DNA from: a virus
Virus record (IMG/VR): IMGVR_UViG_3300025418_000694
Location: 1 to 64,000 of that record
Length of the DNA stretch: 64,000 nucleotides
Strand: one strand, 5' to 3'
The position numbers and the translations under genes were made by a program. How positions within the stretch are numbered: the stretch's first letter is position 1; each line of letters begins with the position of its first letter. Under the pieces are notes generated by a model. The model saw only the letters and a list, made by a program, of their open reading frames with translations, was not told where the DNA came from and did not search any database. Positions 9,801-62,799 of the stretch are shown piece by piece.

Positions 9801-11194
9801 ACTGCTGGTGTGGCAGAAGGTGCAGTTCCTGTGTAGTAAGAAAATACCAATGGTGATGTAACAGTTGCTACATATGCGTTACCATTTGGGGCAGTTCCTG
9901 AGGCTACTGTTGAACCAATAACAGCTATTTCATTACCAATATGTAAACCGTGTGGTTGGGTTGAAGGCATTGTTACTGTAACCATATTTGAAGAATAGGC
10001 AAAAGACGCAGGTGTTAAAGCAGCGTCTTTATAAACCGTTCCAAGAGCTACTAGAGTTTTGTTAGTATCAAAAATTGTTGTAGATGCCCAACCTGTTGGC
10101 GTAGAGCCTTTTGCTGAAAAGGTAAATGAGGATTCACTTGGTCGAGTTTCAATTGTATAGTTACCTGGAACTGATGGTGAGAAAGTATCAGCAATGTAGA
10201 TTGGCACACCGATTGCAGGGGCAACACCAGCTGTTACTGTTCCAGAACCAGATGATGCTGTATTTGCTGTAGTTGAGTTAGCAATAGTAAATGTAGTTGT
10301 TGTTGGGGTTGCAAGAATAATTGCAGGCTGTCCAGAAGTTGTATTGTAGTTAGTTGTAAAACCAGTAATTGTTACAAGTTGTCCAACTGTAAAGTTATGG
10401 GCTGCAGAAGTTGTATAGGTAGCAAGAGTTCCGTTACCAATTGCACTTGATGCAGTTGCTGTGGTGGTTGTAAGAGAAACAGTAATTGTCTTAGTTCCAG
10501 CAGCACCAGTTTGAATATCAGATACTGCTAGGGCGTTAAAGTTGAAGTTATATGCAAATGGGCGGTTATTAATAAGACTTAGATTTTCCCACTTAGATAC
10601 TTGTGGTCCATATTCAAAGTCTGTGTCAATAAGCGCCTGTGGGCTAGATGTACGGAACTTACCTACTGGGTCAGTTAGCTCTTCTGATGGTTCAAACTTT
10701 TCAGCAAATTGGTCGATAGTAATCTGCAACTTATCCGTTGCAGCCATGACTCCTGCAGTATTGTAGTTAAGAACAAGTGTTGTGTTTTCTGAAACAGACG
10801 CTAATCCACCTGATACCCATGTGCCAGTAACTGTGCTTGCTACTGTAAATGTGGTTGAGTTTGCAGATGTAATTGTTGCTGAAATGTTAAATGCTGTTGG
10901 AGTAGCACCTGTAATGGTTACAAATTGACCAGGAGAGAAAGTATTAGCTGCTGTGAATGTAACAGCAGAACCTGTTGTAGCAATAGCTGTGATTGGAGCT
11001 GTAAGGGCGTTTTCACCATACGCTGCATAAGAAGTTGCTAGAAGAGAAGCATCAGAAAAGTTATAGATAACCTTATTCTTGGTAACGTTGGTAATAAGTA
11101 CCAAGCGCTCTTGTGGGATGATGCGGGGAATGACAATAGTTTTTGAGGCTGGGGTAAAGACATATCCTGTCTCTAATAGAATCTTTCTTGCCAT
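6839..11194 (-). CDS. Large Thr/Ser-rich virion structural/fibre protein (1451 aa)
   Basis: LVLITNVTKNKVIYNF N-terminus; ALIDTDFEYG, RQTRRYFRYQSGKG, YSWYGAG motifs; repeated HGxxxGQxVTIxG beta modules. Confidence 0.8.
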   Translation of the reverse strand: MARKILLETGYVFTPASKTIVIPRIIPQERLVLITNVTKNKVIYNFSDASLLATSYAAYGENALTAPITAIATTGSAVTFTAANTFSPGQFVTITGATPTAFNISATITSANSTTFTVASTVTGTWVSGGLASVSENTTLVLNYNTAGVMAATDKLQITIDQFAEKFEPSEELTDPVGKFRTSSPQALIDTDFEYGPQVSKWENLSLINNRPFAYNFNFNALAVSDIQTGAAGTKTITVSLTTTTATASSAIGNGTLATYTTSAAHNFTVGQLVTITGFTTNYNTTSGQPAIILATPTTTTFTIANSTTANTASSGSGTVTAGVAPAIGVPIYIADTFSPSVPGNYTIETRPSESSFTFSAKGSTPTGWASTTIFDTNKTLVALGTVYKDAALTPASFAYSSNMVTVTMPSTQPHGLHIGNEIAVIGSTVASGTAPNGNAYVATVTSPLVFSYYTGTAPSATPAVSPTATTATGAVGSTFVTVASATSIVPGMTVTAAGIAAGTFVTYVQGTAIGLSQAVTTALTTTSITFNASIFVRSQAQVKHRAFDGGVFFSTNGTSNNTAQVRQTRRYFRYQSGKGIQISSGTILKPTYGIDSISYSSPYVTVQTKEPHGLQPGYSIAIYGANENGYNGTFPVASVTGLTSFTYVPTTAPTVTTASGNYYASVSNWNGASNRLGLFDQQNGVFFEYDGTTLYAVRRSSIFQTAGRVTVTNGSSTVSQTTTNYPTTFSKQLVPGDYIVLRGQSYRVIDIASDTSLTIQPSYRGTTATNVIVSKTIDTKIPQSAWNIDRVDGTGPSGYNIDLTKMQMFYMDYSWYGAGAVRWGFRGPKGNIVYVHKQANNNQNATAYMRSGNLSGRYESVTQPASTQLTASVGASDTTINVANTTGFYAPTSVSTSATGSSGANTLVVTSTTGIVSGMFATGTNLGAGAVVTAVNASTLTVTLSVNNGGAVSATITFQSYPGTAVIRGTGSSNTWEYINYTGLTSNTLTGVTRGQAGASAVTTTMAVGSNVATVGSTAGLQVGMRAISPYLADGTKIEFISGTTTLILSSSPTVANPTIWFPAMGYTTGTLGTTSGTAVTAGQAFTYSSTNPTAVEQAFPTFGPSISHWGTSVIMDGRFDDDKSLLFTYGQTTPTSLGGTTAVSTTLVQATTGSVVATAGAATGIVPGQQVTGTGIPNGTYVVAISGTTVTLSQATTATLTGNYSFSGATSKALFSIRIAPSVDNGFSAAFGLRELLNKMQLQTKALDISLLNTTTGNVLVQAYLNGTPYNYVGNNATATGSASASTTVTLTGNTGTVAVGMSVQGAGVTAGTTVTAVASQSSITVSNSLTLSSVPLVFLAPGSTSWTNSVRNAANTPNSSLAQIADYAGNSYSVQGGEVTGGFFVSSTGTSDISQVRDLGNAVLGGGTAVSNTGVYPDGPDTLTIVVTNVSTSTASVLGRISWTEAQA

Positions 11195-11197
11195 GCT

Positions 11198-14100
11198 CTA
11201 AAACGCTCCTAACAATAAATCCGTTGGGGAGAACGGATAAGTTGTGGTTACTGTTGGTGTATCTGTTCCCGCCATAATTCTTCCGCTGAACTGTGAACCT
11301 GCTGGAACTGATTCAGAGAAAGCAATATAACCATCATCATCTACCCTAAAACCATCCCAAGGTAGTGGGGAGTCCCACACTACTGAGGAATAATTTACTG
11401 TTTGAACTATACCATTTATAGTGACTAAAAGTCTCAATGGATTGGTAATAGTTTGTTTGGCACCTTGATAGGTGGGTATAAATCGGTTTTCGACTCCATC
11501 AAAGCTATATTGAAGGTTGTCTAATGGGGTGACTTGTGTCGTGCTGGTATCTAATGAGCCATCGCCTTTAACAAATTGGGAAGACGTTCCTCCAGAAGTA
11601 ATATAAGAAGTAGCCGTTAAGTTACCCCTAGAGTCAATTTTTGCTAATGGCGTACCGCTTGAGTTTTGCCATTCAGTAAGGTTGGCAGTTTGGGAAGCAT
11701 TTGCTTGAACCACTATTGGGGTAATAGCGGCAGTTGGGGCAACGACAGAAACAACTGCTGATATTTGAGCGGTTCCGCCAGTACCAGCAACGTTGGTAAA
11801 TCCTGAACCTACTACGGTAAAGGTGGTAGATGTTGCGGCAGTCACTATCCAAGTACCATTGTAAGTACCGCCAGTAACACCAGCGATAGTTACTTTTTGC
11901 CCGACTTGAATTAACGATGTTCCGCCATAGGTAAAGACGGCAACTGTGGCAGAGGTATAAGCAGCGGATGAAATAGCAGTTGTAATAGAACCAACTACTG
12001 CTGTTGTGTTACCAGCAAATAATTGACCCGCTGCGTTAAATCCTGAAATGACTGTACCAGAACCGTTTTGGTTTTGAAGCATATCTCCGCTTTGGGCAGA
12101 ACTTGACCTAAGCGCCATAATTATACTTGTTGAACCGTTTGGACCAAAATTATTTCTTGCACCATAAGGCGCAGTAGTTCCGCCGTAAATTCCATAAAGA
12201 GTTTTTAAGATACCAAACTGGTCAACAGTTAATGCGTAAGAAGTTCCTGCTTGCGTAAAGGAAGCCATATTTGCATTAGAGCCATTTGGTATAGTTGCAG
12301 TTAATGGCACTACTCCAGTAGCGGTAGGGGCTATTGTGTTACCTGCTGTAAAGGTATTCGTTGTAGCCAATTCAGGCACAACGGTTGTATCTACAATCAG
12401 GTTACTTGCTGAAGTAGTAAGCCCTGTGCCAACATTGAGTGCAATTGTTGACACACCATCGTATGTAATTGGGGCTGTTGCTGTTGCTATACCAGTCGTA
12501 CCAATTGTGCCTTGGTTACCTTGTATTCCCTGTGTGCCTTGAAGCCCCTGAAGACCTTGTGTACCTTGGTTTCCTTGAGTACCTTGAATACCTTGTGTAC
12601 CTTGCGGCCCTTGAATACCCTGCGTACCTTGAGTACCTTGTACTTGTATTCCTTGCGTACCTTGAACGCCTTGCGTTCCTTGTAAACCTTGTAATCCCTG
12701 AGTACCTTGAGTACCAGTAGTTCCTTGTGAACCTGTAAATCCTTGTAAACCAATAAGTCCCTGTAGACCTACAAAACCTTGGGTACCAGTAGCGCCTTGA
12801 ATTCCTGTAAGTCCTTGAGAACCAGTTGTACCTTGAGCACCATTAGCTCCATTAGTACCTGCAGTTCCCTGTGTACCTGTAAAACCTTGTAGTCCAGTTG
12901 TTCCTTGGTTGCCTTGAAGACCTTGTAAACCAGTAAGGCCCTGTAAACCATTTGTTCCTTGAGTTCCTTGAATACCTGTAGAACCTGTAATTCCTTGCGC
13001 GCCTGTCGTTCCCTGCGCTCCTGTAGAACCTGTTGTTCCAATTGCGCCCTGAGTTCCAACTGCACCTTGAATTCCTGTAGTGCCTTGGATTCCTTGTGCG
13101 CCCGTAGCTCCTGTTGAGCCTTGTGTTCCTTGTGGACCGATACCACCAGTTTGAGCAAAGGTAATAGCATCTGTACCAATGATAATCCAGCCGTTAGATT
13201 GGCTACCTACTGAGTTTTCAATCCAGTTAGTACTTGATTGCGTTGTACCAGCAACTACATAAAGAAAATCGCCGTACTCGACTTCGCCATTAACAGAGTT
13301 GTTGTAATCTGATGCGCGAGTGAGGATATAGGGAGTTGGACCTGAACCTTGTTGAGTAATTACATAAATACCATTTTGTGTTGTAGTAGTTTGATTCTTA
13401 ACAAGTACGCGGTCATTAGTAGTAAATGAAACACCATCAACTGAACCACGACCATTGCTAGTAGCAGTAAGAGTTGCGCCTACGCCATAACCACCATCAG
13501 CACCTAAAGTACCTGCGGTGTAAGTAGCAGCAAGATTGGCAGTTGTAGCCATACGAGCAGAAGCGTGTGCGTTGTTAGAAGCTAATGGGCCGACTAATCC
13601 CTGAACGCCTTGTGTACCTTGAACGCCAAAAGAGCCTTGTATTCCTGTATTTCCTTGAATACCCTGAGTGCCTGTACCAGTAATTCCTTGAATACCAGTA
13701 GTTCCTTGGGTACCTTGGACGCCTTGCGTTCCCTGATTTCCCTGCAGACCTTGTAGACCTATTAATCCTTGTAAACCTGTTGTTCCTTGATTACCTTGAA
13801 TCCCTTGTAAACCTGTTGTTCCTTGATTACCTTGAATCCCTTGGTTACCTTGAACTCCTTGAGTACCTTGGATACCTTGCGTCCCCTGTAATCCAACAAG
13901 ACCTTGCGTACCAGTCGCACCCTGCATACCTGTAGTGCCTTGTGTACCAGTGCTTCCTTGTAAACCTAAGAATCCTTGAGTACCCTGCGCGCCCTGTATA
14001 CCAGTTGTTCCTTGAGGACCCTGAACTCCTTGTACTCCCTGCAGACCTTGAATACCCTGGGTACCTTGTGGACCTTGAATGCCCTGAGTTCCCTGAGGTC

Positions 14101-15586
14101 CTTGAACTCCTTGCGTACCTTGCAAACCACTTACGTTAAATGTCCAAGCAGCAAATGTTCCAGAACCACCAGTTCCAGTTACGTTTACAGTAATGCTTGA
14201 ATCAGTTGTTAAGGCGGTAATCTGACCAAACATAAAGTTAGTTGGCGTGCCTGTGTTAGTAACAACAACATATTGACCAACTGTATAAGCGCCAGAATTT
14301 GTAACAGTAAATGCTTTAGAGCCAGTACCAATTAAAAATGATGTAGCAGAAGTTACTCCAATAAATGAACGGCCTTGGATACCCTGAGTTCCTTGAACTC
14401 CTTGAATACCCTGCGTACCTTGTGGTCCTTGGATACCTTGTATACCTGTAGTGCCTTGAGGCCCTTGAATACCTTGTGTACCTTGCACTCCTTGAAGTCC
14501 TTGAATGCCTTGAATACCTTGAGTTCCTTGCGGTCCTTGAATTCCTTGAGTTCCCTGTGGACCTTGTAAGCCTTGAACACCAGCAGTTGAGAATGTCCAT
14601 TGTGAGTAAGTACCAGAACCACCAGTAAGAATAGAGTTAACAGTAATACTGGAATCTAATGTTATTGCGGTGATAATGCCTTCAACCCAGTTTGAAAGCC
14701 CTGGGGTGTTAGAGACACGTACTGTTTGACCTAAACCAAAAGCGCCTGAATTAGTTACGTTAAATGTTAGAGAGCCAGTTGTAACCGCGTTAGGTGTAGG
14801 TGAAGTTACTCCTAGATATGAACGGCCTTGAATGCCCTGTGTGCCTTGCACACCTTGTGTTCCCTGTGTTCCTTGAACACCTTGCAGCCCTTGAGTACCT
14901 TGGGTTCCCTGTGGTCCCTGAACGCCCTGTATACCCTGCGTACCTTGTGGTCCCTGTAAACCTTGCGTGCCCTGAGTTCCCTGTAAACCCTGAGTTCCTT
15001 GCACACCTTGTAGCCCTTGTGTGCCTTGCGTACCTTGTGGACCTTGGATAATTCCAACGTTAACCCAAGCTCCACCTTCCCATACATACAGGTATGGGTC
15101 AACAATATAACCATCACCATTATTACCTGTTGGATGCGCAGCAACTAAAGCGGCATACGTTGGGTATGAACCAAGGATTACTACAGATGTACCAGCGTTA
15201 CCTTGTATTGAAAGTCCCTGCGTACCTTGTGTACCAGTCTTTCCCTGCGCACCCGTATAACCCTGAACACCATTATGTCCAGAAGAACCTTGTAGGCCAT
15301 AAAAACCTTGGATACCTTGTAAGCCTTGAGTACCTTGTGCTTGGTTAAAACCGCCGCCCTGTAAACCTTGAGAACCTTGTACACCTTGACCTGCGTATTG
15401 TCCATGAATACCTTGGGTGCCTTGACCGCCCTGAACACCCTGTACTCCCTGTATTCCTTGCGTGCTAAATCCAGGAAGTCCGCCTGTTTGTGTTGAAGGG
15501 ATTACGTTAACAACTACTGGGGCAGGAGTGACTACTTGGATAGCGCATTGGCATGGCCAGTTATTACAAGAGTGACAGTAACTCAA
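11198..15586 (-). CDS. Collagen-like tail fibre/whisker protein (1462 aa)
   Basis: Long (G-X-Q)n tracts interrupted by globular domains; DRVLVKNQT..QNGIY fibre motif. Confidence 0.85.
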   Translation of the reverse strand: MSYCHSCNNWPCQCAIQVVTPAPVVVNVIPSTQTGGLPGFSTQGIQGVQGVQGGQGTQGIHGQYAGQGVQGSQGLQGGGFNQAQGTQGLQGIQGFYGLQGSSGHNGVQGYTGAQGKTGTQGTQGLSIQGNAGTSVVILGSYPTYAALVAAHPTGNNGDGYIVDPYLYVWEGGAWVNVGIIQGPQGTQGTQGLQGVQGTQGLQGTQGTQGLQGPQGTQGIQGVQGPQGTQGTQGLQGVQGTQGTQGVQGTQGIQGRSYLGVTSPTPNAVTTGSLTFNVTNSGAFGLGQTVRVSNTPGLSNWVEGIITAITLDSSITVNSILTGGSGTYSQWTFSTAGVQGLQGPQGTQGIQGPQGTQGIQGIQGLQGVQGTQGIQGPQGTTGIQGIQGPQGTQGIQGVQGTQGIQGRSFIGVTSATSFLIGTGSKAFTVTNSGAYTVGQYVVVTNTGTPTNFMFGQITALTTDSSITVNVTGTGGSGTFAAWTFNVSGLQGTQGVQGPQGTQGIQGPQGTQGIQGLQGVQGVQGPQGTTGIQGAQGTQGFLGLQGSTGTQGTTGMQGATGTQGLVGLQGTQGIQGTQGVQGNQGIQGNQGTTGLQGIQGNQGTTGLQGLIGLQGLQGNQGTQGVQGTQGTTGIQGITGTGTQGIQGNTGIQGSFGVQGTQGVQGLVGPLASNNAHASARMATTANLAATYTAGTLGADGGYGVGATLTATSNGRGSVDGVSFTTNDRVLVKNQTTTTQNGIYVITQQGSGPTPYILTRASDYNNSVNGEVEYGDFLYVVAGTTQSSTNWIENSVGSQSNGWIIIGTDAITFAQTGGIGPQGTQGSTGATGAQGIQGTTGIQGAVGTQGAIGTTGSTGAQGTTGAQGITGSTGIQGTQGTNGLQGLTGLQGLQGNQGTTGLQGFTGTQGTAGTNGANGAQGTTGSQGLTGIQGATGTQGFVGLQGLIGLQGFTGSQGTTGTQGTQGLQGLQGTQGVQGTQGIQVQGTQGTQGIQGPQGTQGIQGTQGNQGTQGLQGLQGTQGIQGNQGTIGTTGIATATAPITYDGVSTIALNVGTGLTTSASNLIVDTTVVPELATTNTFTAGNTIAPTATGVVPLTATIPNGSNANMASFTQAGTSYALTVDQFGILKTLYGIYGGTTAPYGARNNFGPNGSTSIIMALRSSSAQSGDMLQNQNGSGTVISGFNAAGQLFAGNTTAVVGSITTAISSAAYTSATVAVFTYGGTSLIQVGQKVTIAGVTGGTYNGTWIVTAATSTTFTVVGSGFTNVAGTGGTAQISAVVSVVAPTAAITPIVVQANASQTANLTEWQNSSGTPLAKIDSRGNLTATSYITSGGTSSQFVKGDGSLDTSTTQVTPLDNLQYSFDGVENRFIPTYQGAKQTITNPLRLLVTINGIVQTVNYSSVVWDSPLPWDGFRVDDDGYIAFSESVPAGSQFSGRIMAGTDTPTVTTTYPFSPTDLLLGAF
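12500..15460 (-). repeat. Coding 9-bp-period collagen repeats (G-X-Q)
   Basis: (ccttg/ccctg)N4 tandem pattern on the plus strand, in several blocks. Confidence 0.9.
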
Positions 15587-34554: not shown

Positions 34555-35375
34555 CTATCTGCAGTCCATGCAGTAGTTCATAACTCTTAATTCGCTCTCA
34601 GGAAGTTCTATCTTCCGCGAGCAGTGTGCACACCTAGTGTTATCTCTTAGAGCTCTGAGGTTGCGCTCTCTATTAAAGGTCATTTCATGGGTATAGAACA
34701 ATTTAGCTGCGTAGGCGCCTAATAGCGCGGTTATGATTGAGTTCATTTTCCACCTGTATCCATAAGGTAAGCATGACGTAGAGCTGATTGTGGGGTTAAT
34801 TCCTTCTCAATGGCTTTGATGGTATGGCAAGGGTATTCAACTGGTTCCCATTCAGAACTATCATAAATGCAGTATTCACCCTTTTCATCTGGCTTATGTA
34901 ATTCTACTACCGCACGAAGGGCTTTTCGTAAAGCGTATTCGTAGTCGTGTTTCCCTTCAATCAATCTTAACAGCAAGTTAACGTGTTTCATTTAATGCTC
35001 TCTTTCTCCCACTCTTCATATGCTAAAGCAAAGTCCACTATATCTAACCCATCTTGGGCGTTATAGTTCTCTTCTTCTAGGTACTCAAAGAAGTCTTCAT
35101 CTACAACTACTACTGGTAGATCCAACCCTTTTAGTCGATGGCCATCAAGTGAGGCCACCATCTCAAACTCTTTCATTAGTTGACCTTACAGTATCTGCAT
35201 TGGCAAAGTCCATTTACGCACGGACACTCTTCATCTGATTGCAATAAACCCGTACCGTAGCACCAGTAACAGGCAGATATCTCTCTATCCATTACTCGTC
35301 CCCGTTCTGATAACCGCACTTAATGCAGACCCAGTTATCCTCATCCTCATCAAAGACAAAGTGATGCTCACACAT
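34555..35375 (-). other. Operon of five small ORFs (35292-35375, 35176-35292, 34988-35176, 34743-34991, 34555-34746), four Cys-rich
   Basis: TAATG/ATGA couplings; leaderless-type TGA-TAGGAT-N6-ATG at 35375. Confidence 0.6.
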
Positions 35376-35499
35376 GGACCAATCCTATCATAAGCGCGAT
35401 GATCCTCACCTTGGGCTACTGCCTAACAAACTTAGGTCATACCTGTGGATTTCACCTGGCAGCCATGTCTATTTGTCGACAATTTAACCCTAGGGGGGT

Positions 35500-35574
35500 C
35501 TGAGAATAGTCTGAGAATAGTCTGAGAATAGGCTGTGAATAATGGGCGGGAATAAATAGGTGATAGGTTTGGTT
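35500..35574 (+). promoter_or_regulatory. P1: four 11-bp-phased CTGAGA/CTGTGA boxes plus GGGAAT-N17-GGTT promoter of the sigma gene
   Basis: Boxes at 35500, 35511, 35522, 35533; GGGAAT at 35548; GGTT at 35571. Confidence 0.8.
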
Positions 35575-35616
35575 CACTAAGCAAGTGAGCAAGGGGCTCA
35601 CTGATAGGGGTACAAA

Positions 35617-36111
35617 ATGGACAAGGCACAACTAAGCAAGGACATACTAAACTATCAAGGGATGCTTTATGGTTACGCCATGAAACTAACTAATGGCAAT
35701 TCACATGACTCTCTCGATTTGGTACAGGATACTTTCGAGAAAGCGCTCGCTAATAGTGAGAAGTTTGACGGGGCTAATCTTCAAGCGTGGCTTCACACTA
35801 TCCTCCGCAATCAATTCATCAACGTTTACCGCAAGCAGTCTCGCATGGTAGTGGCTGATGAAACCGCGCTAGTGGAATTAGAAACAGAAACCGCGCCTAG
35901 CGCAGAGTACCGCGCAATTTTCAATCACTTTTCGCCTAAAGTCTCTCAAGCCTTACAGGCTCTAGGGGATGACTTTCTAAAGGTTGTCTACCTAGTAGAC
36001 ATAGAGGGTTTCACTTATGAGGAAACCGCTAATCAACTAGGCGTTAAAACCGCCACAGTAGGCACACGCCTAAACCGCGCACATAAGGTTCTAAGGGAGG
36101 CTCTAGCATGA
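35617..36111 (+). CDS. ECF sigma factor, SigH/SigR-like
   Basis: Region 2 DLVQDTFEKA, NLQAWLHTILRNQFINVYRK; region 4 DIEGFTYEETANQLGVKTATVGTRLNRA. Confidence 0.92.
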   Translation: MDKAQLSKDILNYQGMLYGYAMKLTNGNSHDSLDLVQDTFEKALANSEKFDGANLQAWLHTILRNQFINVYRKQSRMVVADETALVELETETAPSAEYRAIFNHFSPKVSQALQALGDDFLKVVYLVDIEGFTYEETANQLGVKTATVGTRLNRAHKVLREALA

Positions 36112-36200
36112 ACCCACTCACAAGCGGACTCCCAATCACAATTCTGTGGTTGGGGGCGAGCATAAGTTTCTACCTACTGATTAGGGACTTAACGAAATAA
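36108..36200 (+). CDS. 30-aa single-TM peptide coupled to the sigma gene
   Basis: ATGA overlap, GGGAGG RBS; MNPLTSGLPITILWLGASISFYLLIRDLTK. Confidence 0.55.
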   Translation: MNPLTSGLPITILWLGASISFYLLIRDLTK

Positions 36201-36202
36201 GA

Positions 36203-36230
36203 AGGGGCGCGGGAAACCGCGCCTCTCTCT
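36203..36230 (+). terminator. Hairpin closing the sigma transcript
   Basis: AGGGGCGCGG-GAAA-CCGCGCCTCT. Confidence 0.65.
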
Positions 36231-36332
36231 CGATTCCCCGTAGGGGTATGGGGAGGGTGGGCCAACACAAACAATTGGCATTGGGAGCAAGGCATTAGGG
36301 AAGTGTTTACAATTCCCTAAAAGTGTTTATTC

Positions 36333-36396
36333 CTGAGAGATTCCTGAGAATTATCTGGAAATTACCTTAGGGAATAATAACCAACCCTAACCCGTT
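36333..36396 (+). promoter_or_regulatory. P2: three phased boxes plus GGGAAT-N17-CGTT
   Basis: CTGAGA at 36333 and 36344, CTGGAA at 36355; GGGAAT at 36370; CGTT at 36393. Confidence 0.82.
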
Positions 36397-36437
36397 ATAC
36401 AGGTACAAGGTCGGAAACGCCGACAAAAGGGGAAAAA

Positions 36438-37227
36438 ATGAACCACTTATACAAAAGCAATTATTCAAGCCTTACTGATGTAGATGTACAGATGGATGTA
36501 CGCGACAGCACCAACGGGGATGTCATGTTCGAGATGAACATGTCTAGTTGGCATGATAATAATACCTATCATGTCATGGAGCAATTCATCCTTACAGAGG
36601 CGCAGGCGCGCTCACTAAAAGAAGCACTAGAGACTTATCTAGAGGCTAAGTATGATGAGCGTGAAGCAGTTGCCCTAGCGCAATTTGACGCAGTACGTGA
36701 CGACCTATTTGAAGTGGAGGCAGAATAGTGGAAACACTATCAGCACTAGCAATTAAGAAAGATTCGGTGACTAGAGAAATGCTAGCCAGCGAGTTAGATG
36801 AAATGAACGCAGATTCACGCGCCTATTGTCTAATGCAGGTAATCGGACACCTAGAGTTAGACAAGGCACAAGGTCAAGAGTTATTCCCACTCTGGACAGC
36901 GTGGGTTACTGCTCGCAGTATTAACAATGACGCTTACGGATTGAGGGACTAATGGGACATAATTTCGCACAAGAATTGGCTAGCGGGGAGTTAACACTCC
37001 CCCTAGAGGAGGCTATAGCGATTCACCTAAGAAGTAATCACTATCCACCCGTACCGCTTTCTATGGTAACCCCCTGTATAGAAGCCATAGATAAATGCAA
37101 CGAGGGTGATTCTGGCGCGCTAATAGACTTACCCGATCCAATTAAATGGAAAGGCGCAAGCCAAGCACCAGCGTATGCAGTAATAGAAGGTCATCACTTA
37201 GAACCATGGGTTCAATGGGATGACTAA
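36438..37227 (+). other. Three small early ORFs (36438-36728, 36728-36952, 36952-37227)
   Basis: Coupled ORFs with RBSs, under P2. Confidence 0.7.
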
Positions 37228-37228
37228 C

Positions 37229-37363
37229 CCCAGATAGGGAGGCTACCCCCTAGCCTCCCTAATTTGAAATGCTTGCCAAAAGCAAGGCGTGTTATGCCGC
37301 AGCCATAACCGAGGACTCACTCGAACTGGGATTAAAGCCACCAAATCGGTGGCTTTACTATTT
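37229..37363 (+). ncRNA. Candidate multibranch RNA followed by a terminator
   Basis: CCCAG/CTGGG closes four hairpins; TAAAGCCACC/GGTGGCTTTA terminator at 37333-37357. Confidence 0.35.
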
Positions 37364-37445
37364 AACTCCCTGACGGCATTGGGTTAGGCATTGACCAACA
37401 CAAACATTAGGCTTTCGGGTATTGGCGCAAACTCCCCAAACAAAA

Positions 37446-37519
37446 CTGAGAGATTTCTGAGAATTGGCTGAGAATTGCCTGGAAATAGCGGCGGGAATAA
37501 ATTGGGGTTATGAGCCGTT
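37446..37519 (+). promoter_or_regulatory. P3: four phased boxes plus GGGAAT-N17-CGTT
   Basis: CTGAGA at 37446, 37457, 37468, CTGGAA at 37479; GGGAAT at 37493; CGTT at 37516. Confidence 0.85.
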
Positions 37520-37563
37520 ATACAGATGAATAGCCACACGGGTTATTCGGGAAAGGTAATCAA

Positions 37564-38082
37564 ATGCTAACTGATACACAATCTCGCGAGATTAACCATC
37601 TCGTATTGCAATTATCTGCTGATTTAACAGTAGCGCCCGACTTTATAGTTGAGGCTATCCGCGAGGATGAAAGCGTAAACGCGCTAGTCTATCGCTGGCT
37701 CACACGTGGGGGAGTGGAATACCGCTCAATCCTAGACCTACTCAATGGGATGTTCTAATGATTAAATTCCCACACACAATTAAATTGGTTGCTGAATTAG
37801 ATGAAAATAATCCAAGCACCAAGGCGCTCCAAGCGCTACCAGAATACCTACAGCATAAATTGCTTGAAGAAGCGTTTATTGGAGCACTAAATAGATTAAG
37901 CGTGTTTGATACCATAAATGAGGGCTCAACATGGGGAATAGTTAAGGTGGATACCAATGGATGAACAAGCCGAGCGTATCAAGGAGCGCATGTCCGAGGA
38001 GTTAGATGACATCCTAGCCAATGGAGACCTGCAAGCGTTCGAGGAATTATTCGAGGATCGAGACCCGTTCGAATTCCTATAA
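37564..38082 (+). other. Three small early ORFs (37564-37758, 37758-37964, acidic 37957-38082)
   Basis: Coupled ORFs; the last reads MDEQAERIKERMSEELDDILANGDLQAFEELFEDRDPFEFL. Confidence 0.65.
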
Positions 38083-38094
38083 CAAAAGTGGGGC

Positions 38095-38121
38095 GGGAAT
38101 AAAAAGCCCGCCCCAATCGTT
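38095..38121 (+). promoter_or_regulatory. P4: GGGAAT-N17-CGTT embedded in a GC-rich inverted repeat
   Basis: GGGAAT at 38095, CGTT at 38118; TGGGGCGGG/CCCGCCCCA arms. Confidence 0.75.
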
Positions 38122-38143
38122 ACAGCAACAGAAGGGAGGAAAC

Positions 38144-38476
38144 ATGGAAAATGAAGTAGATGTGCTGCTTAAGCGCCTAAAAGAATTGGGCGTAGAGGCT
38201 AAGCCCGTTCGTGTCAATGAGCGCCAAAAGGCTACGCTACAAAAAATTGTAGAGGCTGATGTCGCTATTAAAGAAGCGCGGGAAACTATCAAGCAGGCTA
38301 CAGAAAATTGGCGCGTATCTAGGGAAACACTAGACCGCCTATTAGTAGAAGCCCGTAAGATGAAAGTAACCCAAGCAGAAATTGGCAAAGCCCTTGGTAT
38401 TAGCAATGGCTCTGTATCAAGTAGGACAATTACGGCACGCCGTAGAGTCCGTAAAAGAAACCGCACCAAGAAATAA
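38144..38476 (+). CDS. Coiled-coil plus helix-turn-helix DNA-binding protein
   Basis: GGAGG RBS before ATG at 38144; VTQAEIGKALGISNGSVSSR HTH. Confidence 0.75.
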   Translation: MENEVDVLLKRLKELGVEAKPVRVNERQKATLQKIVEADVAIKEARETIKQATENWRVSRETLDRLLVEARKMKVTQAEIGKALGISNGSVSSRTITARRRVRKRNRTKK

Positions 38477-38595
38477 CCGATAAATTTCTGAGGCTATCCG
38501 TCGCCAATCGAAGCCGTAATTGCCTCAGTTCCCCAAAGTAGGTGGTTGGTTCCCACCTGCTAGAGCGCGGGTATACCTTCCCCCCGCGCTCACCC

Positions 38596-38771
38596 CTAAA
38601 ATGTTTGTGTTGAACCCGCCCGCCCACATGCCTGAAGGGAATAAGCCAATTGGACAATTGTTAAACAATTGTCCAACACAAACATTCCTAGCCCAAAGTG
38701 AACATTAGGTGAACATTACCTGAGAGAAACCTGTGAATAGAGATGGGAATAATGAGAGGGTAGTATCCGTT
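38596..38771 (+). repeat. Regulatory module copy A (inverted CAACACAAACA, palindrome, phased boxes, promoter P5)
   Basis: Aligns with 39751-39937; boxes at 38698, 38709, 38720, 38731; GGGAAT at 38745; CGTT at 38768. Confidence 0.85.
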
Positions 38772-38819
38772 CTACTATTGAAAGCGAAACCAACCAAGCG
38801 CTTTCAGAATAGGACAAAA

Positions 38820-39656
38820 ATGAACACAACTGACACTCTTACAGTATCAAACGAGTTTACTGTAGGCGAACTATGGGAAGCAGTCTGGGGCTGTGACGGA
38901 GCGGGCATGGTCTATTGGTGCTCTAAAATCCGCACTCCAGAAGGCAAGGACATCTATCTTTTCCTCAACAAAGGTGATGAATTTGTCCCCAACCCTCAAC
39001 CTGTCAAAATTTATGACACGACAGGCGTTACTCCTAAAACCTACGTGGTAACTGTCGAGGATTTGCGCCGAGGCTACGAACTAGCACTCAAAGCAGGTCA
39101 GACACATTGCGGAGGTTATCCTCTAGAAATTGACGACGCCGACTCCTGTTTCGGTGACATGGTTATACAGTACGCAATCTTTAACGAATTAGTCTACGGA
39201 TAGGAAGGGAAAACATGAGCGAAGTAGTATGGCAGAGCCAAATCACAGAGGACATGGTTCAAGATGTAAGCGCCCGTTCGTTCTTATTTGAGGAATTGGA
39301 CGACGCGGTAATGCGAATTTGTCAGGAATACGGGGTAAAATCCCTATGAGCCGTAGACACTTTCGCGCCCTAGCCGAAGCCCTAAAGGACTCAGGCGCTA
39401 GTTATCAGACTGTGGCTGCTATTGCTAGAGTCTGTGCCAATGAAAACCCAAGATTTGACTCCTCTAAGTTCTTTGAGGCGTGTGGCGTATGACTACCTAT
39501 AACACAGTAGTGCGCTTATACGCCTCAATAGAGGCAGAAACAGAGGAACAAGCAGAGTCAAGACTCCATGACTACATGAATAGCGTGGGTCTAGTTCCTA
39601 GTAATTGCGTTGTAGTCGCCGATTATGACGTAACAGACTTCGACAAGGAGGATTGA
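38820..39656 (+). other. Four small early ORFs (38820-39203, 39215-39349, 39346-39492, 39489-39656)
   Basis: RBSs and ATGA overlaps; the last three read by hand. Confidence 0.65.
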
Positions 39657-39750
39657 CGGAGACTAGCCGAGCCTGTCCTAGCCGTAATTGTATCCGTCAA
39701 GGGCGGTGGGAAGTAAAAAGCCCACCGCTATACAAAAAGCGCGGAAATGT

Positions 39751-39937
39751 CTAAATTGTTTGTGTTGACCCACCCACCCACGTACCTAAATACGACATCT
39801 TATTCCGCAATAAGCGGAATAAGCATTTGGGCTAATTGTTTAACAATTAGCCCAACACAAACATTCCCGCCCCAAGATGAACATTAGATGAACATTAACT
39901 GAGAGATTGCTGAGAGATTACTGAGAGAAGGCTGAGA
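39751..39937 (+). repeat. Regulatory module copy B with six phased boxes
   Basis: ATGAAC at 39877 and 39888; CTGAGA at 39899, 39910, 39921, 39932. Confidence 0.85.
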
Positions 39938-40089
39938 GCCAATCTATAGTAGAGTGAGAGTCTGCTATAGATTAAAAATGGACACGCCTTCGGCTACTGT
40001 CTAAAGAACGAAGTGAGAGTGTAGCGATACGTCCAGATTATTGCTATATGTCCGATTTGTCTTATATGATAACAATCTCTGCGATTACT

Positions 40090-40152
40090 GTTCACCTTCC
40101 GTTCACCTTCCGTTCATCTACTTAGGGGAATATATATCTACTCTATTCCGTT
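40090..40152 (+). promoter_or_regulatory. P6: three PHO-box-like GTTCAY units plus GGGAAT-N17-CGTT
   Basis: GTTCACC at 40090 and 40101, GTTCATC at 40112; GGGAAT at 40126; CGTT at 40149. Confidence 0.82.
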
Positions 40153-40211
40153 CTATCCATGTACGACAAACACTAACCGCGCCAATGGCGCACTATTAGA
40201 AGGAAGGCAGT

Positions 40212-41591
40212 ATGACACTAGCAGTATTGGTGGAGACCTTAGAGGGCGAAGCGCGCTCACAGACTCTCCTATTCCCTCACAAGGGAGAAGTGCGGATTTA
40301 TCACCGCCTCTCAACAGGTCAGGCAGGACGTGGACAGACATGGTCTCACCTATCTGATATAGAGGATTTGCCCGACACTCTCCTATCCAAGAAACCCGTA
40401 GCCGTTGTCCTCACCGAGCGCGATACTGCTCTCGTTGATACAGGACTCGTTACCAATATCGGTGCTAAGGCTCTCTATGCCTATGAAAGTGCCGACCCTG
40501 TTACCGCGCCAATCTCACACAGAGATAGCGTTCTAGACCTTAAAACTCGATTCGAGTCAGGAGACAACTCTCTCTCTGATTTGATTACCGATAAACGTCG
40601 TAATCAGGGTGTAATTCTAACCCCGTTGAGCGCGACCCCGAACGTGACCTTTATTAAGCAAAGTGAGCCTATCAAGCAAGAAGTAACAATAGGCGCACAC
40701 GAAAGCACACGTCTCGCCTATGAAAATATGATTACTGTTCCCGACCAAAAGTGGTCACGTGATTATATAAACCGCTACTTTGAGGACGGCAAGTCCGACT
40801 TCGAGATTTATGACTACGCAGATTCTAACGATATAAACGTTCTAATCGAAGGTGGCGCTGGTTCAGGCAAGACCATGAGTGTAATCGCCTATGCCTCTGC
40901 TAGACAGAAGCGTTATTTCAACGTCTCCTCTAATGCTGGTATTGACCCTAGCCAACTATTCGGGCGCTGGATTCCTAGAGAGGACGGACATGGTTATCGC
41001 TGGCAGGACGGCGCAGTCACTCTCCTAGTTCGACATGGCGGAGTTCTACTCCTCAATGAAGTGAACTTCATGCCCGAACGTATTATGACAGTTCTCTATT
41101 CCTTACTAGATGACCGACGTGAGATTCAATTATTGGATAACGGCGGTGAGGTTATTAAGGCTCACAAAGACCTGCTAATCGTGGCAGACATGAACGCTGG
41201 TTATCGTGGCACTCACGAACTATCACAGGCTAACAATGACAGGTGGAAAATTAAACTAGAGTTTCCTTACGATAAGAAAATCGAAAGCAAACTAATCAAG
41301 TCTAAGGCTCTGCTGGAATTGGCTCAAAAGTTACGTGACCGATTCGACCTAGATGAACTCACAACTCCAATCTCGACACGTGGTCTAGTAGCACTACAAA
41401 ATAACGTGACGGGTCTAGGCTTGAACTTCGCAATTACTTCTTACGTCAATGGATTCGACAAAGATGAACGCGTGGCAGTTCGTCAGGTAATCGAAACAAT
41501 GAAGTGGAATATCGCAACCGACTTCGGTGTAAAGGTTGAAGTCGAACCTACAGATTCAATCGTAACCGAGACAGTAAAGGTGGATAACTAA
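40212..41591 (+). CDS. MoxR/CbbQ/CobS-like AAA+ ATPase
   Basis: Walker A GGAGSGKT, WQDGAVT, LLLNEVN, MNAGYRGT..LSQA..DRW, ISTRGL. Confidence 0.9.
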   Translation: MTLAVLVETLEGEARSQTLLFPHKGEVRIYHRLSTGQAGRGQTWSHLSDIEDLPDTLLSKKPVAVVLTERDTALVDTGLVTNIGAKALYAYESADPVTAPISHRDSVLDLKTRFESGDNSLSDLITDKRRNQGVILTPLSATPNVTFIKQSEPIKQEVTIGAHESTRLAYENMITVPDQKWSRDYINRYFEDGKSDFEIYDYADSNDINVLIEGGAGSGKTMSVIAYASARQKRYFNVSSNAGIDPSQLFGRWIPREDGHGYRWQDGAVTLLVRHGGVLLLNEVNFMPERIMTVLYSLLDDRREIQLLDNGGEVIKAHKDLLIVADMNAGYRGTHELSQANNDRWKIKLEFPYDKKIESKLIKSKALLELAQKLRDRFDLDELTTPISTRGLVALQNNVTGLGLNFAITSYVNGFDKDERVAVRQVIETMKWNIATDFGVKVEVEPTDSIVTETVKVDN

Positions 41592-41592
41592 T

Positions 41593-43551
41593 ATGGGTCG
41601 CCGTCGCCGTCGCAATAATGGACTAATCTCTGAATTGGATTCCCTATCCACAGGACGTGGACTCCATGAACGTATCAACGATAACAATGAGTGGGAACTC
41701 TATGATGAGGAAAGCGGTTTAGCAGTAACCCATGCCGAACTAGTCGCAAAATACACAGAGCGCGCTAACCGACTCAATGCGGTGGCACAGGTGTACGAAC
41801 GTGTAGATAGGATTCTCACCAATGAGGATATTACTGTTCGTGTAATCAACGATAAGAATATGGATACCAATGCCCGTTCCAATGGAAAGGATATTGAACT
41901 CAATGCCAATCTAATTGAGGATTTATCTGACGAAAGTATTATGAGCCTTCATGGTCTGAACTATCACGAACTAGCGCACGTGGAGTTCTCTCCCCGTCAG
42001 GGTTCAGACTTAGGAATATACGTTCGCGATAATAAACTGTTTAAGGCAATCGCAATTCTAGAGGAAGGTCGCGCTGAACAATTACTGCTCAAAAAGTATC
42101 CTTCAATTCGACCTTACCTAGAAGCAAGTGTTTATACCTACGTGTTAGCAGACCAGCCTAGTGATTGGGGAACTAAGTTTCATCTAATCACAGGTCGCAC
42201 CTACTTACCACTAGAAATTAGGCAATCTATTCTAGACAAAGCAATCGTTCAATACGGATATGAAATTGTCTCCAACGTTCACTCGATTATCCATGCCTAT
42301 CGTGACTTAGTGTTCCCTGCTGATTTCGATAAGGCTAAAGAACTCGCACACAGACTCGCCAATATACTCGGACATGATGAGGATTCTAATAATTCAGGTT
42401 CAAGTTCTAGTGAAGGTTCAGAGGAGTCTAAGGACTCAAAAGGTATCACAGGTGTAGGCGGTGGGTGCGGTCTGCCTAGTAAGGGCAGACCAGCAAGCGG
42501 AAAGGAGCAGGCTAAGTATCAAAGCCAGCCCTCTAATGATAAATTAGAAAGCCTCAACACAAACAGGTCGCAAAGCGATAGCGGTTCAGGTAGCGAAATT
42601 GAAACTCAATCGGTCAATGATTCAGATTCAGAAATTACTGCCAAAGATGTTGAAGTGGCTCATGCTCTCAATGAGCGCATGAACCAACTAAAGCAGGACT
42701 CTCGCGTTAAGCGCGAAGTCAAGGACACTCGAAATGCGATTCTCGGTTCAGGTGAGGCTAAGGCTGATATTCCAACAGGTGACACTATGGAAATCGCACC
42801 TTCTATGGGAGCAATCTCAATGGCAAAGCGATTCAGCACAGAGTTAGAACGCATAGTGCGAAACAATGACCCTGCTTGGGTAGGTCGCACTAGAAGTGGT
42901 CGCCTGAATATCTCTCGCACCATGAACCCTGATGTCAATGCTATCTCTGAAATGTTCGACCAATGGGATATTGGTAATGAAGCCACCGATATAGAAGCGG
43001 TTATCCTTACCGATAATTCAGGTTCAATGGGCGGTTCAATGAAAGCAGTATGCGAGAACACTTGGATTCTAAAGCGCGCTATCGAAAGCATAGAAGGTTC
43101 AGTAACCGCCTTCTCCTTCGATTCTGATACTGAACTGCTCTACTCTAAAGATGATAAGGCTAAGTCTAGAGTAATGAAGTTCGTGGGTTCACGTGGAAGC
43201 ACTAACCCACTACGCGGAATTATCGAAGCAGACCGCATATTGACCTCATCTAAAAAGTCAATCAAGATTCTATTTATAGTTACTGACGGGGATTGGGAGC
43301 GCCAAGAACAATGCGACGACCTAATCAAGTCTATGAACAATAAGGGATTCCTGACGTGCGTAGTGTTCTTAGGTGATTTCAAGTCCTATCAGAACCTAAT
43401 CGAGCAGTCTGCTAGAGGTGATGACCGCGCTACTAATTACTTAAAGGCAATACGTCACCACGCCAAAGTGTTCCACGCTGTTACCAACACCGCAGATATT
43501 CTCAAAGTGGCAAGTATGCTAGTCAAATCAACTCTAAAGAAGGTGGCTTAG
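41593..43551 (+). CDS. CobT-like vWA protein with N-terminal HExxH motif
   Basis: HELAH, LEEGRAE, SGRLN, MIDAS DNSGSM, GST, VTDG. Confidence 0.88.
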   Translation: MGRRRRRNNGLISELDSLSTGRGLHERINDNNEWELYDEESGLAVTHAELVAKYTERANRLNAVAQVYERVDRILTNEDITVRVINDKNMDTNARSNGKDIELNANLIEDLSDESIMSLHGLNYHELAHVEFSPRQGSDLGIYVRDNKLFKAIAILEEGRAEQLLLKKYPSIRPYLEASVYTYVLADQPSDWGTKFHLITGRTYLPLEIRQSILDKAIVQYGYEIVSNVHSIIHAYRDLVFPADFDKAKELAHRLANILGHDEDSNNSGSSSSEGSEESKDSKGITGVGGGCGLPSKGRPASGKEQAKYQSQPSNDKLESLNTNRSQSDSGSGSEIETQSVNDSDSEITAKDVEVAHALNERMNQLKQDSRVKREVKDTRNAILGSGEAKADIPTGDTMEIAPSMGAISMAKRFSTELERIVRNNDPAWVGRTRSGRLNISRTMNPDVNAISEMFDQWDIGNEATDIEAVILTDNSGSMGGSMKAVCENTWILKRAIESIEGSVTAFSFDSDTELLYSKDDKAKSRVMKFVGSRGSTNPLRGIIEADRILTSSKKSIKILFIVTDGDWERQEQCDDLIKSMNNKGFLTCVVFLGDFKSYQNLIEQSARGDDRATNYLKAIRHHAKVFHAVTNTADILKVASMLVKSTLKKVA

Positions 43552-62481: not shown

Positions 62482-62799
62482 TCACGACTCTTTGGTTAAT
62501 ACCCACTCCTTTAGTGTCATACCTGCGCGTGTCGCCTTACGCTTAAGGGCATTACGCTCACGGTGACTCATGCCACCCCAAATTCCGTGCGTGTCTTCCA
62601 TCTCCTCCGCATACAGTAAGCACTGCTTACGTACGGGGCATTCAGGAAGACCGTCTTTACCGTAGCAAATAGCTTTTGCTCGGTCAGCAATATCTTTATA
62701 TTGGTCTTTATCTCTTGGCGGGTACCAAGTATTAGTGTCTATTCCTCGACACTTGGCTTTGTATCTCCAAGGTTCTGGTCCGAGATCTTCGTCGTACAA
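62482..62799 (-). CDS. whiB: WhiB-family transcription factor
   Basis: W...AKC, AKAIC, CPVRKQC, GIWGG..ER. Confidence 0.93.
   Translation of the reverse strand: MYDEDLGPEPWRYKAKCRGIDTNTWYPPRDKDQYKDIADRAKAICYGKDGLPECPVRKQCLLYAEEMEDTHGIWGGMSHRERNALKRKATRAGMTLKEWVLTKES

Follow-up and report, generated by a model that had tools for sequence, protein, structure and literature searches.

In actinobacteria, the MprAB envelope-stress regulon includes mprA-mprB-pepD, sigB, and sigE, and the MprA box is an 11-bp direct repeat of TCTCAG/CTGAGA. Direct repeats one turn apart are also bound by phage proteins, as is the case for lambda CII and P2 Cox. Host two-component control of phage genes is already documented for phosphate in cyanophages, in which Pho boxes of P-SSM2 pstS and of S-PM2d genes are controlled by host PhoBR (PMC10976474); the authors who tested these boxes found box prediction in phage genomes to be unreliable (PMC10976474). 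The PHO direct repeat unit of S. coelicolor consists of GTTCACC and four less conserved bases, every 11 nt (PMC4415409, PMC2275107), and repeats of CCTGTGAA form the PhoR site of C. glutamicum (PMC3353115). The literature searched yielded no case of phage genes placed under an envelope-stress regulator of the host.

The window analyzed here, i.e., the whole stretch of DNA under study (64 kb), belongs to an uncultured phage (G000) with a whole genome of 95.8 kb. It contains CTGAGA arrays that we predict, with a probability of roughly 0.6, to serve as operators bound by an MprA-type (envelope-stress) response regulator of the host, a member of the OmpR family. As in the cyanophages, sites for a host OmpR-family regulator, here predicted ones, would be located on phage promoters, and the genes would follow a host two-component signal. 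Unlike the cyanophage boxes, they would answer to an envelope-stress rather than a phosphate regulator, in another host phylum, and they form long, helically phased arrays at many promoters of one block that also encodes an ECF sigma factor.

Box arrays and adjoining promoters

A previous sequence-only reading described six arrays with an exact 11-bp period. All six were indeed present, between 35500 and 40122, and all were intergenic:

35500-35543, forward strand: array 1, CTGAGA at 35500/11/22 and CTGTGA at 35533 (unit CTGAGAATAGT three times, then CTGTGAATAAT), preceding the phage sigma gene promoter
36333-36365, forward strand: array 2, CTGAGA at 36333/44 and CTGGAA at 36355
37446-37489, forward strand: array 3, CTGAGA at 37446/57/68 and CTGGAA at 37479
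38698-38741, forward strand: array 4, GTGAAC (inverted GTTCAC) at 38698/709, CTGAGA at 38720, and CTGTGA at 38731
39877-39942, forward strand: array 5, ATGAAC at 39877/88 and CTGAGA at 39899/910/921/932
40090-40122, forward strand: array 6, GTTCAC at 40090/101 and GTTCAT at 40112 (unit GTTCACCTTCC twice, then GTTCATCTACT), PHO-box-like

The period-11 repeats detected in the window by Tandem Repeats Finder all lay within 35498-40116. CTGAGA-N5-CTGAGA was observed 8 times in the window versus 0.00 expected (100 shuffles), and GTTCAY-N5-GTTCAY 4 times versus 0.03 expected. Over the whole 95.8-kb genome, the CTGAGA pair gave 8 forward matches versus 0 for the reversed control; the 13 CTGAGA boxes in exact 11-bp register correspond to these 8 adjacent pairs. 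Overall, the arrays far exceed chance expectation, and all of them lie between the genes of a single block. The two box types were said to share a register in two arrays, which is true of arrays 4 and 5, but the minus strand carries the GTTCAY boxes at 38698 and 39877, which are thus inverted relative to those of the 40090 array.

In five arrays, the last box had been reported to start 14-15 bp before GGGAAT. The distances measured from the start of the last box were 15, 15, 14, 14, and 14 bp (35533 to 35548, 36355 to 36370, 37479 to 37493, 38731 to 38745, and 40112 to 40126, respectively); no GGGAAT was found downstream of array 5. The following promoters were identified:

35548-35579, forward strand: P1, sigmaH type, GGGAATA-N17-GGTTCAC, driving the sigma gene
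36370-36401, forward strand: P2, GGGAATAA-N14-CCGTTATAC
37493-37524, forward strand: P3, GGGAATAA-N14-CCGTTATAC
38095-38126, forward strand: array-less promoter of sigmaH type, upstream of the HTH gene
38745-38776, forward strand: P4, GGGAATAA-N14-CCGTTCTAC
40126-40157, forward strand: P6, GGGGAATA-N-CCGTTCTAT, driving the MoxR-like AAA and VWA operon (40212-43551)

The array-linked promoters are of the sigmaH/SigR type (gGGAATa-N17-cGTT). The corresponding pattern (-35 GGAAT and -10 GTT, 18-19 nt apart) was matched 11 times versus 1.9 expected, with eight matches on the forward strand between 35549 and 45384. Boxes adjoin the -35 element at five promoters of this phage and at two promoters of its closest relative, G001, where the 14-15 bp interval, the loss of which had been named as evidence against regulation by the host, is kept.

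Two genes of the block encode proteins with sigma-factor domains:

35617-36111, forward strand: SigH-like ECF sigma factor (Pfam Sigma70_r2 at 1.5e-15, r4_2, and Sigma70_ECF)
38144-38476, forward strand: small protein with a sigma-70 region-4-like HTH (Pfam Sigma70_r4 at 5.5e-7)

The best NCBIfam match of the sigma factor was TIGR02947 SigH_actino (2.8e-31, below its cut-off). The phage carries both the -35/-10 pattern and an ECF sigma of the cognate type, and its sigmaH-type promoters are predicted to be served by this protein, which appears to be autoregulated since the sigmaH-type P1 drives its own gene. As with actinobacterial SigH/SigR, gGGAATa-N17/18-cGTT corresponds to the published sigmaH consensus (gGGAAta / GTT; PMC10012870) and the sigma gene is preceded by a promoter of the kind that its product should recognize. 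The phage system differs in that the sigma is phage-encoded, is only 164 aa long with scores under the family cut-offs, and has a 30-aa membrane ORF downstream of its gene in place of an RshA-type anti-sigma gene.

Several boxes are one position off GGGAATA (as in GAGAATA), the -10 element of P1 is itself GTTCAC, and A/T-rich spacers recur in helical phase. These features would fit degenerate promoter elements bound by sigma region 4, or curved or UP-like DNA raising the local polymerase concentration. Such an origin is highly improbable, because the invariant positions are those of CTGAGA and not of the GGAAT core, and because relatives without the sigma carry CTGAGAG arrays before sigmaA-type promoters (TTGACN-N17-TAGNNT).

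Host signature and related phages

The WhiB family is a marker of an actinobacterial host, and one member was identified above its cut-off:

62482-62799, reverse strand: WhiB-family gene (PF02467 at 5.4e-18)

WhiB genes (PF02467) were present in this phage as well as in G001 and G002, and the host is thus very likely an actinobacterium. Moreover, the major capsid protein and the large terminase were, respectively, 72% and 53% identical to those of Streptomyces phages, and the best NCBIfam match of the phage sigma, given above, is an actinobacterial SigH. The GC content of 44% and the result of the tRNA search (no gene found in the genome) fit poorly with a typical high-GC actinobacterial host, which argues against Mycobacterium or Streptomyces being the actual host.

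Six relatives (G001, G002, G088, G093, G094, and G104) have kept arrays, which in every case follow a CAACACAAACA element and precede a promoter. Neither the sigma nor the region-4 HTH was found in G088 (a complete genome), G093, or G094, all of which carry arrays. The homologue of array 5 in the relatives also precedes a sigmaA-type promoter, and since both promoter types are found next to arrays, these are not tied to GGGAAT promoters as such. The sequence-only reading had noted that no response regulator is encoded in the window; we can extend this to the entire genome and to seven relatives, in all of which no OmpR-type protein (Trans_reg_C) was found. The same reading had named binding by the HTH protein at 38144 as an outcome that would contradict it. 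We rejected this protein as the box binder because it is missing from G094 and from the complete genome of G088.

Another phage-encoded protein might bind the boxes cooperatively, in the manner of lambda CII or P2 Cox, and act as the switch of the block. The arrays share with those systems helically spaced direct repeats next to or across the -35 element of phage promoters, and most early-block proteins of this phage have no known function. Unlike in those systems, the boxes are not accompanied by any recognizable cognate protein of the phage, as the candidates of this kind are missing from array-bearing relatives. Moreover, the early block of every relative encodes a MoxR-like AAA protein and a VWA protein, and the other shared proteins are small and bear no DNA-binding signature; a search among the shared proteins for a conserved DNA-binding candidate gave none. 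As array-bearing relatives lack the sigma and the HTH, and the phages lack an OmpR-type protein, a regulator of the host MprA family is the best candidate binder.

CTGAGA boxes in bacterial genomes

In a Mycobacterium sp. genome (6.7 Mb), 10 box pairs were found versus 0 for the reversed control, and such pairs precede genes of mprA-like (regulator), pepD-like (a trypsin+PDZ protease located after a kinase gene), and sigB-like (a group-2 sigma) type. The sigB-like gene has a GGGAAC-N17-CGTT promoter downstream of its boxes, which lie about 50 bp before the -35 element. The 81 sampled Actinomycetes genomes yielded 61 box pairs versus 3 for the reversed control. Across bacterial genomes, at least 120 loci with CTGAGA triplets were found, and among the matches listed, 7 preceded a gene for an OmpR-type regulator at a distance of at most 500 bp. 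These regulators shared 44-56% identity with the MprA-like protein of Mycobacterium, and their recognition helix and wing were nearly identical to its own. In Chloroflexota, triplets occurred upstream of MprA-like regulator-kinase operons, which suggests that the pairing of box and regulator predates the Actinobacteria and extends beyond them. The earlier assignment of the 11-bp CTGAGA/TCTCAG boxes to the MprA type is borne out by these locations.

Phage and MprAB-regulon boxes share the hexamer, the 11-bp direct-repeat period, similar flank preferences, and an association with ECF-type promoters, as at the sigB-like gene. Phage and bacterial boxes alike favour a purine at +7 and A/T at +8, and they have one 13-mer in common. 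The phage arrays differ in being phage-borne, in having 3-6 units (some odd numbers) instead of 2, in abutting the -35 element, and in being mixed in register with other types. They also read mostly in the opposite orientation: phage CTGAGA reads along transcription, contrary to the mycobacterial mprA, pepD, and sigB sites, but as at the regulator operons of Chloroflexota and Kitasatospora. G was found at +7 in 31 of 43 phage boxes versus 9 of 33 bacterial boxes, a stronger preference that could mean a different binder.

Two alternatives draw on how the boxes are distributed. The phage has 8 pairs in 96 kb, confined to its regulatory regions, versus 10 in the 6.7-Mb Mycobacterium genome, and its extended CTGAGAG(T/A)T conservation exceeds that of bacterial boxes, as would be expected for a phage-encoded binder. 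We nonetheless regard such a binder as unlikely, since a bacterial regulon uses exactly this hexamer at exactly this period. The box density, about 50-fold that of the bacterial genome, would also suit a sink that titrates the phosphorylated MprA-type regulator of the host and blunts the envelope-stress response rather than activating phage genes; array 5, whose four to six boxes are not next to a GGGAAT promoter, would agree with this role. We give a sink little chance as the main function, because five of the six arrays are at a fixed 14-15 bp from the -35 element, as also seen in G001, a geometry that a sink would not need, and because the arrays of relatives always precede a promoter.

Since the repeats match MprA boxes and sit before its promoters, the phage probably ties its genes to the stress state of the host through an MprA-type regulator. 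Binding by this regulator, activation rather than repression, and the order of events are steps that we infer. The phosphorylated regulator would bind head-to-tail on one DNA face, with one protomer per 11-bp unit, and the promoter-proximal protomer, directly against the -35 element, would help to recruit RNA polymerase. A sigmaH-like factor of the host could start the sigmaH/SigR-type phage promoters, and the phage sigma, whose own gene has the same promoter type and an array, could then amplify expression. The rightward block at 35.5-47 kb would thereby be coupled to host stress signalling, like a host promoter of the sigB type. If host MprA drives these promoters, stress from adsorption and injection would be a cue for the phage programme, coupled to stress-sigma-type promoters and to the phage's own sigma. 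The block would then offer a testable example of a virus copying a host stress-promoter layout (MprA boxes and an ECF promoter, as at the sigB-like gene), and would allow sequence-based prediction of hosts and regulatory inputs in a large uncultured clade of freshwater- or soil-type actinophages.

Phosphate-type boxes and exchange of box types

The GTTCACC-type boxes (the 40090 array and the inverted pairs at 38698 and 39877) could be bound by a host PhoP/PhoR-type regulator, providing a second, phosphate input that would be compatible with MprA control; we consider this a tentative possibility. The resemblance of 11-nt GTTCACC repeats to the Streptomyces PHO box was confirmed in the literature (PMC4415409). 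With two GTTCACC units and one GTTCATC at 11-nt spacing beside the -35 element, array 6 contains the two or more GTTCACC-core units (>=2) that define a PHO box. Moreover, the optimum of C. glutamicum PhoR, CCTGTGAAaatCCTGTGAA (PMC3353115), is matched by CCTGTGAA and GCTGTGAA, the boxes proximal to the promoter, and the GTTCAY pattern is in excess (4 versus 0.03, as above). Against this, GTTCAC is also similar to the promoter's own -10 element, and the downstream MoxR-like AAA and VWA genes have no evident phosphate link. Unlike the Streptomyces PHO box, the array was found in this phage only, before a MoxR/VWA operon, and Streptomyces is an unlikely host in view of the GC content and lack of tRNA genes; in G002, G094, and G088, CTGAGAG or CGTTAT boxes take the place of the array in the homologous region before MoxR. 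Thus, of the earlier proposal that operons are wired to two host regulators, the envelope-stress arm is probable, with boxes identical to those of the MprA regulon, but the phosphate arm, limited to one unconserved array, is not supported.

More speculatively, this clade of uncultured actinobacterial phages (80-100 kb) might place interchangeable rows of boxes for host response regulators, helically phased and used as "plug-in" elements, before early promoters. Box type (MprA-type CTGAGA, PhoP-type GTTCACC, or CGTTAT/ATAACG) and number would be exchanged between operons and phages, and a captured SigH-like sigma would provide positive feedback in some of them. Several host two-component signals might then be read at once, including envelope stress caused by the infection; we hold this broader scheme to be possible but doubtful. 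The CGTTAT/ATAACG box type resembles the corynebacterial MtrA site.

Arrays and promoters at the start of the rightward block

The phage genome (G000; 95,817 bp, rated complete by CheckV, the window being its first 64 kb) has a GC content of about 44% and carries nearly all of its genes on the minus strand, except for a rightward block at about 35.6-47 kb, at the start of which the arrays are located. Inspection of positions 35400-40300 confirmed six arrays of direct repeats, all of them intergenic and with a period of exactly 11 bp (arrays 1 to 6, starting at 35500, 36333, 37446, 38698, 39877 and 40090), as described in the sequence-only reading, and every period-11 repeat found in the window by Tandem Repeats Finder fell inside 35498-40116. 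The pair CTGAGA-N5-CTGAGA was observed 8 times versus 0.00 in shuffles, with 8 matches in the whole genome versus none for a reversed control; GTTCAY-N5-GTTCAY was observed 4 times versus 0.03. The final box started 14-15 bp 5' of GGGAAT at five arrays, again as previously described, and no GGGAAT was present downstream of the array at 39877-39942. The presence of GTTCAY boxes was likewise upheld, with one correction: those of the 38698 and 39877 arrays are opposite in strand to those at 40090. An Rfam search of 35000-40400 gave no matches.

The open reading frame (ORF) at 35617-36111 (+) encodes an ECF sigma factor (Pfam r2, r4_2 and Sigma70_ECF), whose best NCBIfam match was actinobacterial SigH, with a score under the cut-off. 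The promoter pattern GGAAT-N18-GTT was observed 11 times versus 1.9 expected. Eight matches were on the plus strand, three of them without an array:

35549 (+), adjoining array 1
36371 (+), adjoining array 2
37494 (+), adjoining array 3
38096 (+), without array
38746 (+), adjoining array 4
40127 (+), adjoining array 6
44078 (+), without array
45384 (+), without array

The extended form, gGGAATa...cGTT, is the consensus of Corynebacterium glutamicum sigmaH, sigmaE requiring GGAAC (PMC10012870); the GGGAAT -35 elements therefore belong to sigmaH/SigR-type promoters, one of which precedes the phage sigma gene itself. A sigma-70 consensus scan of the array region gave a count not above that of shuffles. 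A 30-aa ORF, MNPLTSGLPITILWLGASISFYLLIRDLTK, at 36108-36200 (+) overlaps the sigma stop codon (ATGA) and is kept 3' of the sigma gene in the related phage G001 and in G001 variants; it may encode a membrane-anchored partner or a mini anti-sigma for the ECF sigma.

Other elements were observed around the arrays. The motif CAACACAAACA, present at 36263, 37396, 38674 and 39853 (+) and at 38602 and 39757 (-), sits 45-75 bp 5' of arrays 2-5. Its reverse complement accompanies it in two intergenic regions, about 70-95 bp farther 5', the pair flanking a perfect palindrome; the motif may serve another factor as operator or, in read-through RNA, form a long terminator-like hairpin. Within the approximately 150 unassigned bp between arrays 5 and 6 (39943-40089) are found an inverted repeat, TCTATAG...CTATAGA, and the motif GAGTGAGAGT, which in relatives lies immediately 5' of the -10 in sigmaA-type promoters; this stretch may represent a small RNA, or else a sigmaA promoter in relic or variant form.

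CTGAGA boxes in bacterial genomes

We assigned the CTGAGA boxes to the MprA type by our own genome comparison, and not on the basis of a published consensus. When 185,579 species genomes were scanned for CTGAGA triplets spaced at 11 bp, at least 120 loci were found, versus about 17 expected from uniform composition. Among the matches listed, Actinomycetota predominated, about 11 loci were from Chloroflexota, many arrays at orthologous loci differed in their spacers, and in 7 of 120 loci an OmpR-family regulator gene lay no more than 500 bp 3' of the array; two listed Anaerolineae had the array in front of a regulator-kinase operon.

One Mycobacterium genome contained 10 box pairs versus 0 for the reversed control. 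The proposal that the boxes are of MprA type was supported there by TCTCAG-N5-TCTCAG closely preceding mprA-like, pepD-like and sigB-like genes:

target 1, regulator gene, product starting VRILVVDDDRAVRESL
target 2, trypsin+PDZ protease gene, 3' of a kinase gene
target 3, group-2 sigma gene

These mprA-like, pepD-like and sigB-like genes correspond to the mprA-mprB-pepD and sigB set; the reference list of a review has MprAB directly regulating sigB and sigE. A GGGAAC-N17-CGTT promoter follows the boxes at the sigB-like gene, an arrangement that is the host-side equivalent of the phage layout.

Across 81 sampled Actinomycetes genomes, 61 box pairs were found versus 3 for the control, a tally that takes in the array-selected genome (10 matches) and the unpublished genomes G011, G019, G036 and G040 (5 matches); without these genomes, it was 46 versus 3. 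Further pairs lay 2.3-2.5 kb apart. Flanking preferences were common to phage and bacterial boxes, with one 13-mer identical in both. All regulator matches in an NCBIfam search, a collection without an MprA model, were under the cut-off.

In Chloroflexota MAGs, arrays of three CTGAGA boxes were observed directly 5' of MprA-like regulator genes:

L181, 3199-5556, array and regulator-kinase operon
L186, 620-2917, array and regulator-kinase operon
L174, 5812-7083, array and regulator gene
L193, array and regulator gene

At L181 and L186, one inverted TCTCAG adjoins a TATACT/TATAAT -10. The array-adjoining regulators of Chloroflexota exhibited 47-56% identity to the Mycobacterium MprA-like protein, with a nearly identical recognition helix and wing. 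The box-regulator pair therefore extends beyond Actinobacteria. Streptomyces triplets flank a DAGK/PspC-domain gene (L178, 560-2491) and a lysyl-phosphatidylglycerol-synthase-type gene (L187, 835-1833), neighbours that fit an envelope-stress regulon there as well.

Host and related phages

A cyanobacterial or Firmicute host, the first idea given 44% GC and strong Shine-Dalgarno sites, was dropped because of WhiB genes, over the Pfam cut-off, in G000 (62482-62799) and its relatives G001 and G002. The capsid protein and terminase are 72% and 53% identical, respectively, to those of BRock-group Streptomyces phages, the closest matches of the AAA protein are from Gordonia and Brevibacterium phages, and cellular relatives of the phage sigma are mostly actinobacterial. 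Together with the WhiB genes, these affinities make an actinobacterial host very likely; 44% GC without tRNA genes, none of which were found in G000, argues against Mycobacterium or Streptomyces proper. BRock-like phages, which have the capsid and terminase in common, were absent from the sigma matches in phage records.

A nucleotide search of phage records with G000 and a single-protein search of viral contigs with the phage sigma both gave no matches, and a profile search with the sigma recovered the G001 group as the sole array-bearing one. A loose pattern scan of viral contigs returned mostly noise, from which co-occurrence with CAACACAAACA singled out two true relatives. A homologue search with the WhiB protein returned only metagenomic proteins, hundreds of them, with many located on 80-100-kb contigs, and led to phages G088, G093, G094 and G104. 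The phage clade defined by WhiB comprises at least 583 viral contigs. In these four phages, as well as in G001 and G002, CAACACAAACA is kept 5-70 bp 5' of the first CTGAGA box.

Phage G001 (87.6 kb) is syntenic with G000, encodes a sigma whose identity to that of G000 varies from 32 to 40% with the alignment used, and retains CTGAGAG/CTGATAG boxes and a GGGAATAA-N14-CCGTTATAC promoter. The box-to-promoter spacing proved to be conserved in this relative, the final box lying 14-15 bp from the -35 at two G001 promoters. Its sigma promoter has two extra inverted TCTCAGGGAA boxes, the second overlapping the -35. In G093, G094 and G104, CTGAGAG arrays precede sigmaA-type promoters (TTGACN-N17-TAGNNT), with GTTATAA boxes in between in G094 and G104. 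In G088, the arrays are followed by (T)CGTTAT boxes spaced at 11 bp and then by a GGAAT-N18-GTTA promoter. The arrays thus seem able to combine with more than one promoter type. Neither the sigma nor the region-4 HTH was found in G088 (complete), G093 or G094. Since these phages retain the arrays, the arrays must predate, and be independent of, both proteins.

The (T)CGTTAT boxes constitute a third type, which recurs with an 11-bp period in the interval from the CTGAGAG boxes to the -35 and has inverted ATAACG upstream:

L398 (G088), about 3032, 4026 and 6328, reverse strand
L132 (G002), 400-470, reverse strand

The related GTTATAA boxes of G104 are 12 bp apart. As a lead only, these CGTTAT/ATAACG boxes are similar to RTAACAAT, the MtrA site of the corynebacterium C. 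glutamicum (PMC3353115).

Candidate regulators of the arrays

Our best reading, to which we give a probability of about 0.58, is binding of the arrays by a host MprA-family regulator, which would activate the adjacent phage promoters; in this phage, its input would be joined with sigmaH-type promoters and an autoregulated phage sigma. Consistent with the view that the phage supplies no response regulator, a Trans_reg_C domain was found in 0 of 8 phage records. An unrecognised phage protein as box binder is rather unlikely: the early-block proteins common to relatives (MoxR-like AAA, VWA and a few small proteins) exhibited no DNA-binding signature. The HTH protein at 38144 was rejected as binder, being missing from array-bearing relatives, one of them a complete genome. 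Arrays acting as a sink for the regulator are less probable still, and boxes as pseudo-promoter elements or curved DNA very improbable; a role as pseudo -35 sites recognised by the phage sigma was rejected, since sigma-less relatives retain arrays on sigmaA-type promoters.

The proposed second, phosphate input stood only in part and is doubtful, weaker than the MprA arm. The GTTCACC units agree with the Streptomyces PHO box (PMC4415409, PMC2275107), as CCTGTGAA does with the PhoR site of C. glutamicum (PMC3353115), but array 6 is not kept at the homologous promoter of G002, G094 and G088. The box types that differ among phages at this position suggest exchangeable modules.

Phage genes under a host two-component regulator are already known from cyanophage Pho boxes, with the authors' warning that predicted Pho boxes in phage genomes often fail on testing (PMC10976474). 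What is new is that an actinophage carries arrays of MprA type, that these take a helical multi-unit form abutting the -35, and that they are paired with a SigH-like sigma of the phage's own.

A further motif, GGCTACTGCC / GGCTACTGTC, recurs in regulatory regions of G000, G001, G002 and G094:

window, 35412
L130, about 4225
L132, about 293, reverse strand
L399, reverse strand

The whole of G000 contains 104 GATC sites versus about 374 expected from length, a strong under-representation, and no occurrence of GCGATCGC. Long 9-, 18-, 27- and 36-bp repeats yielding collagen-like Gly-X-Y runs occur in a pair of very large ORFs (1451 and 1462 aa; 6839-15586, minus strand), which are presumably tail fibres.
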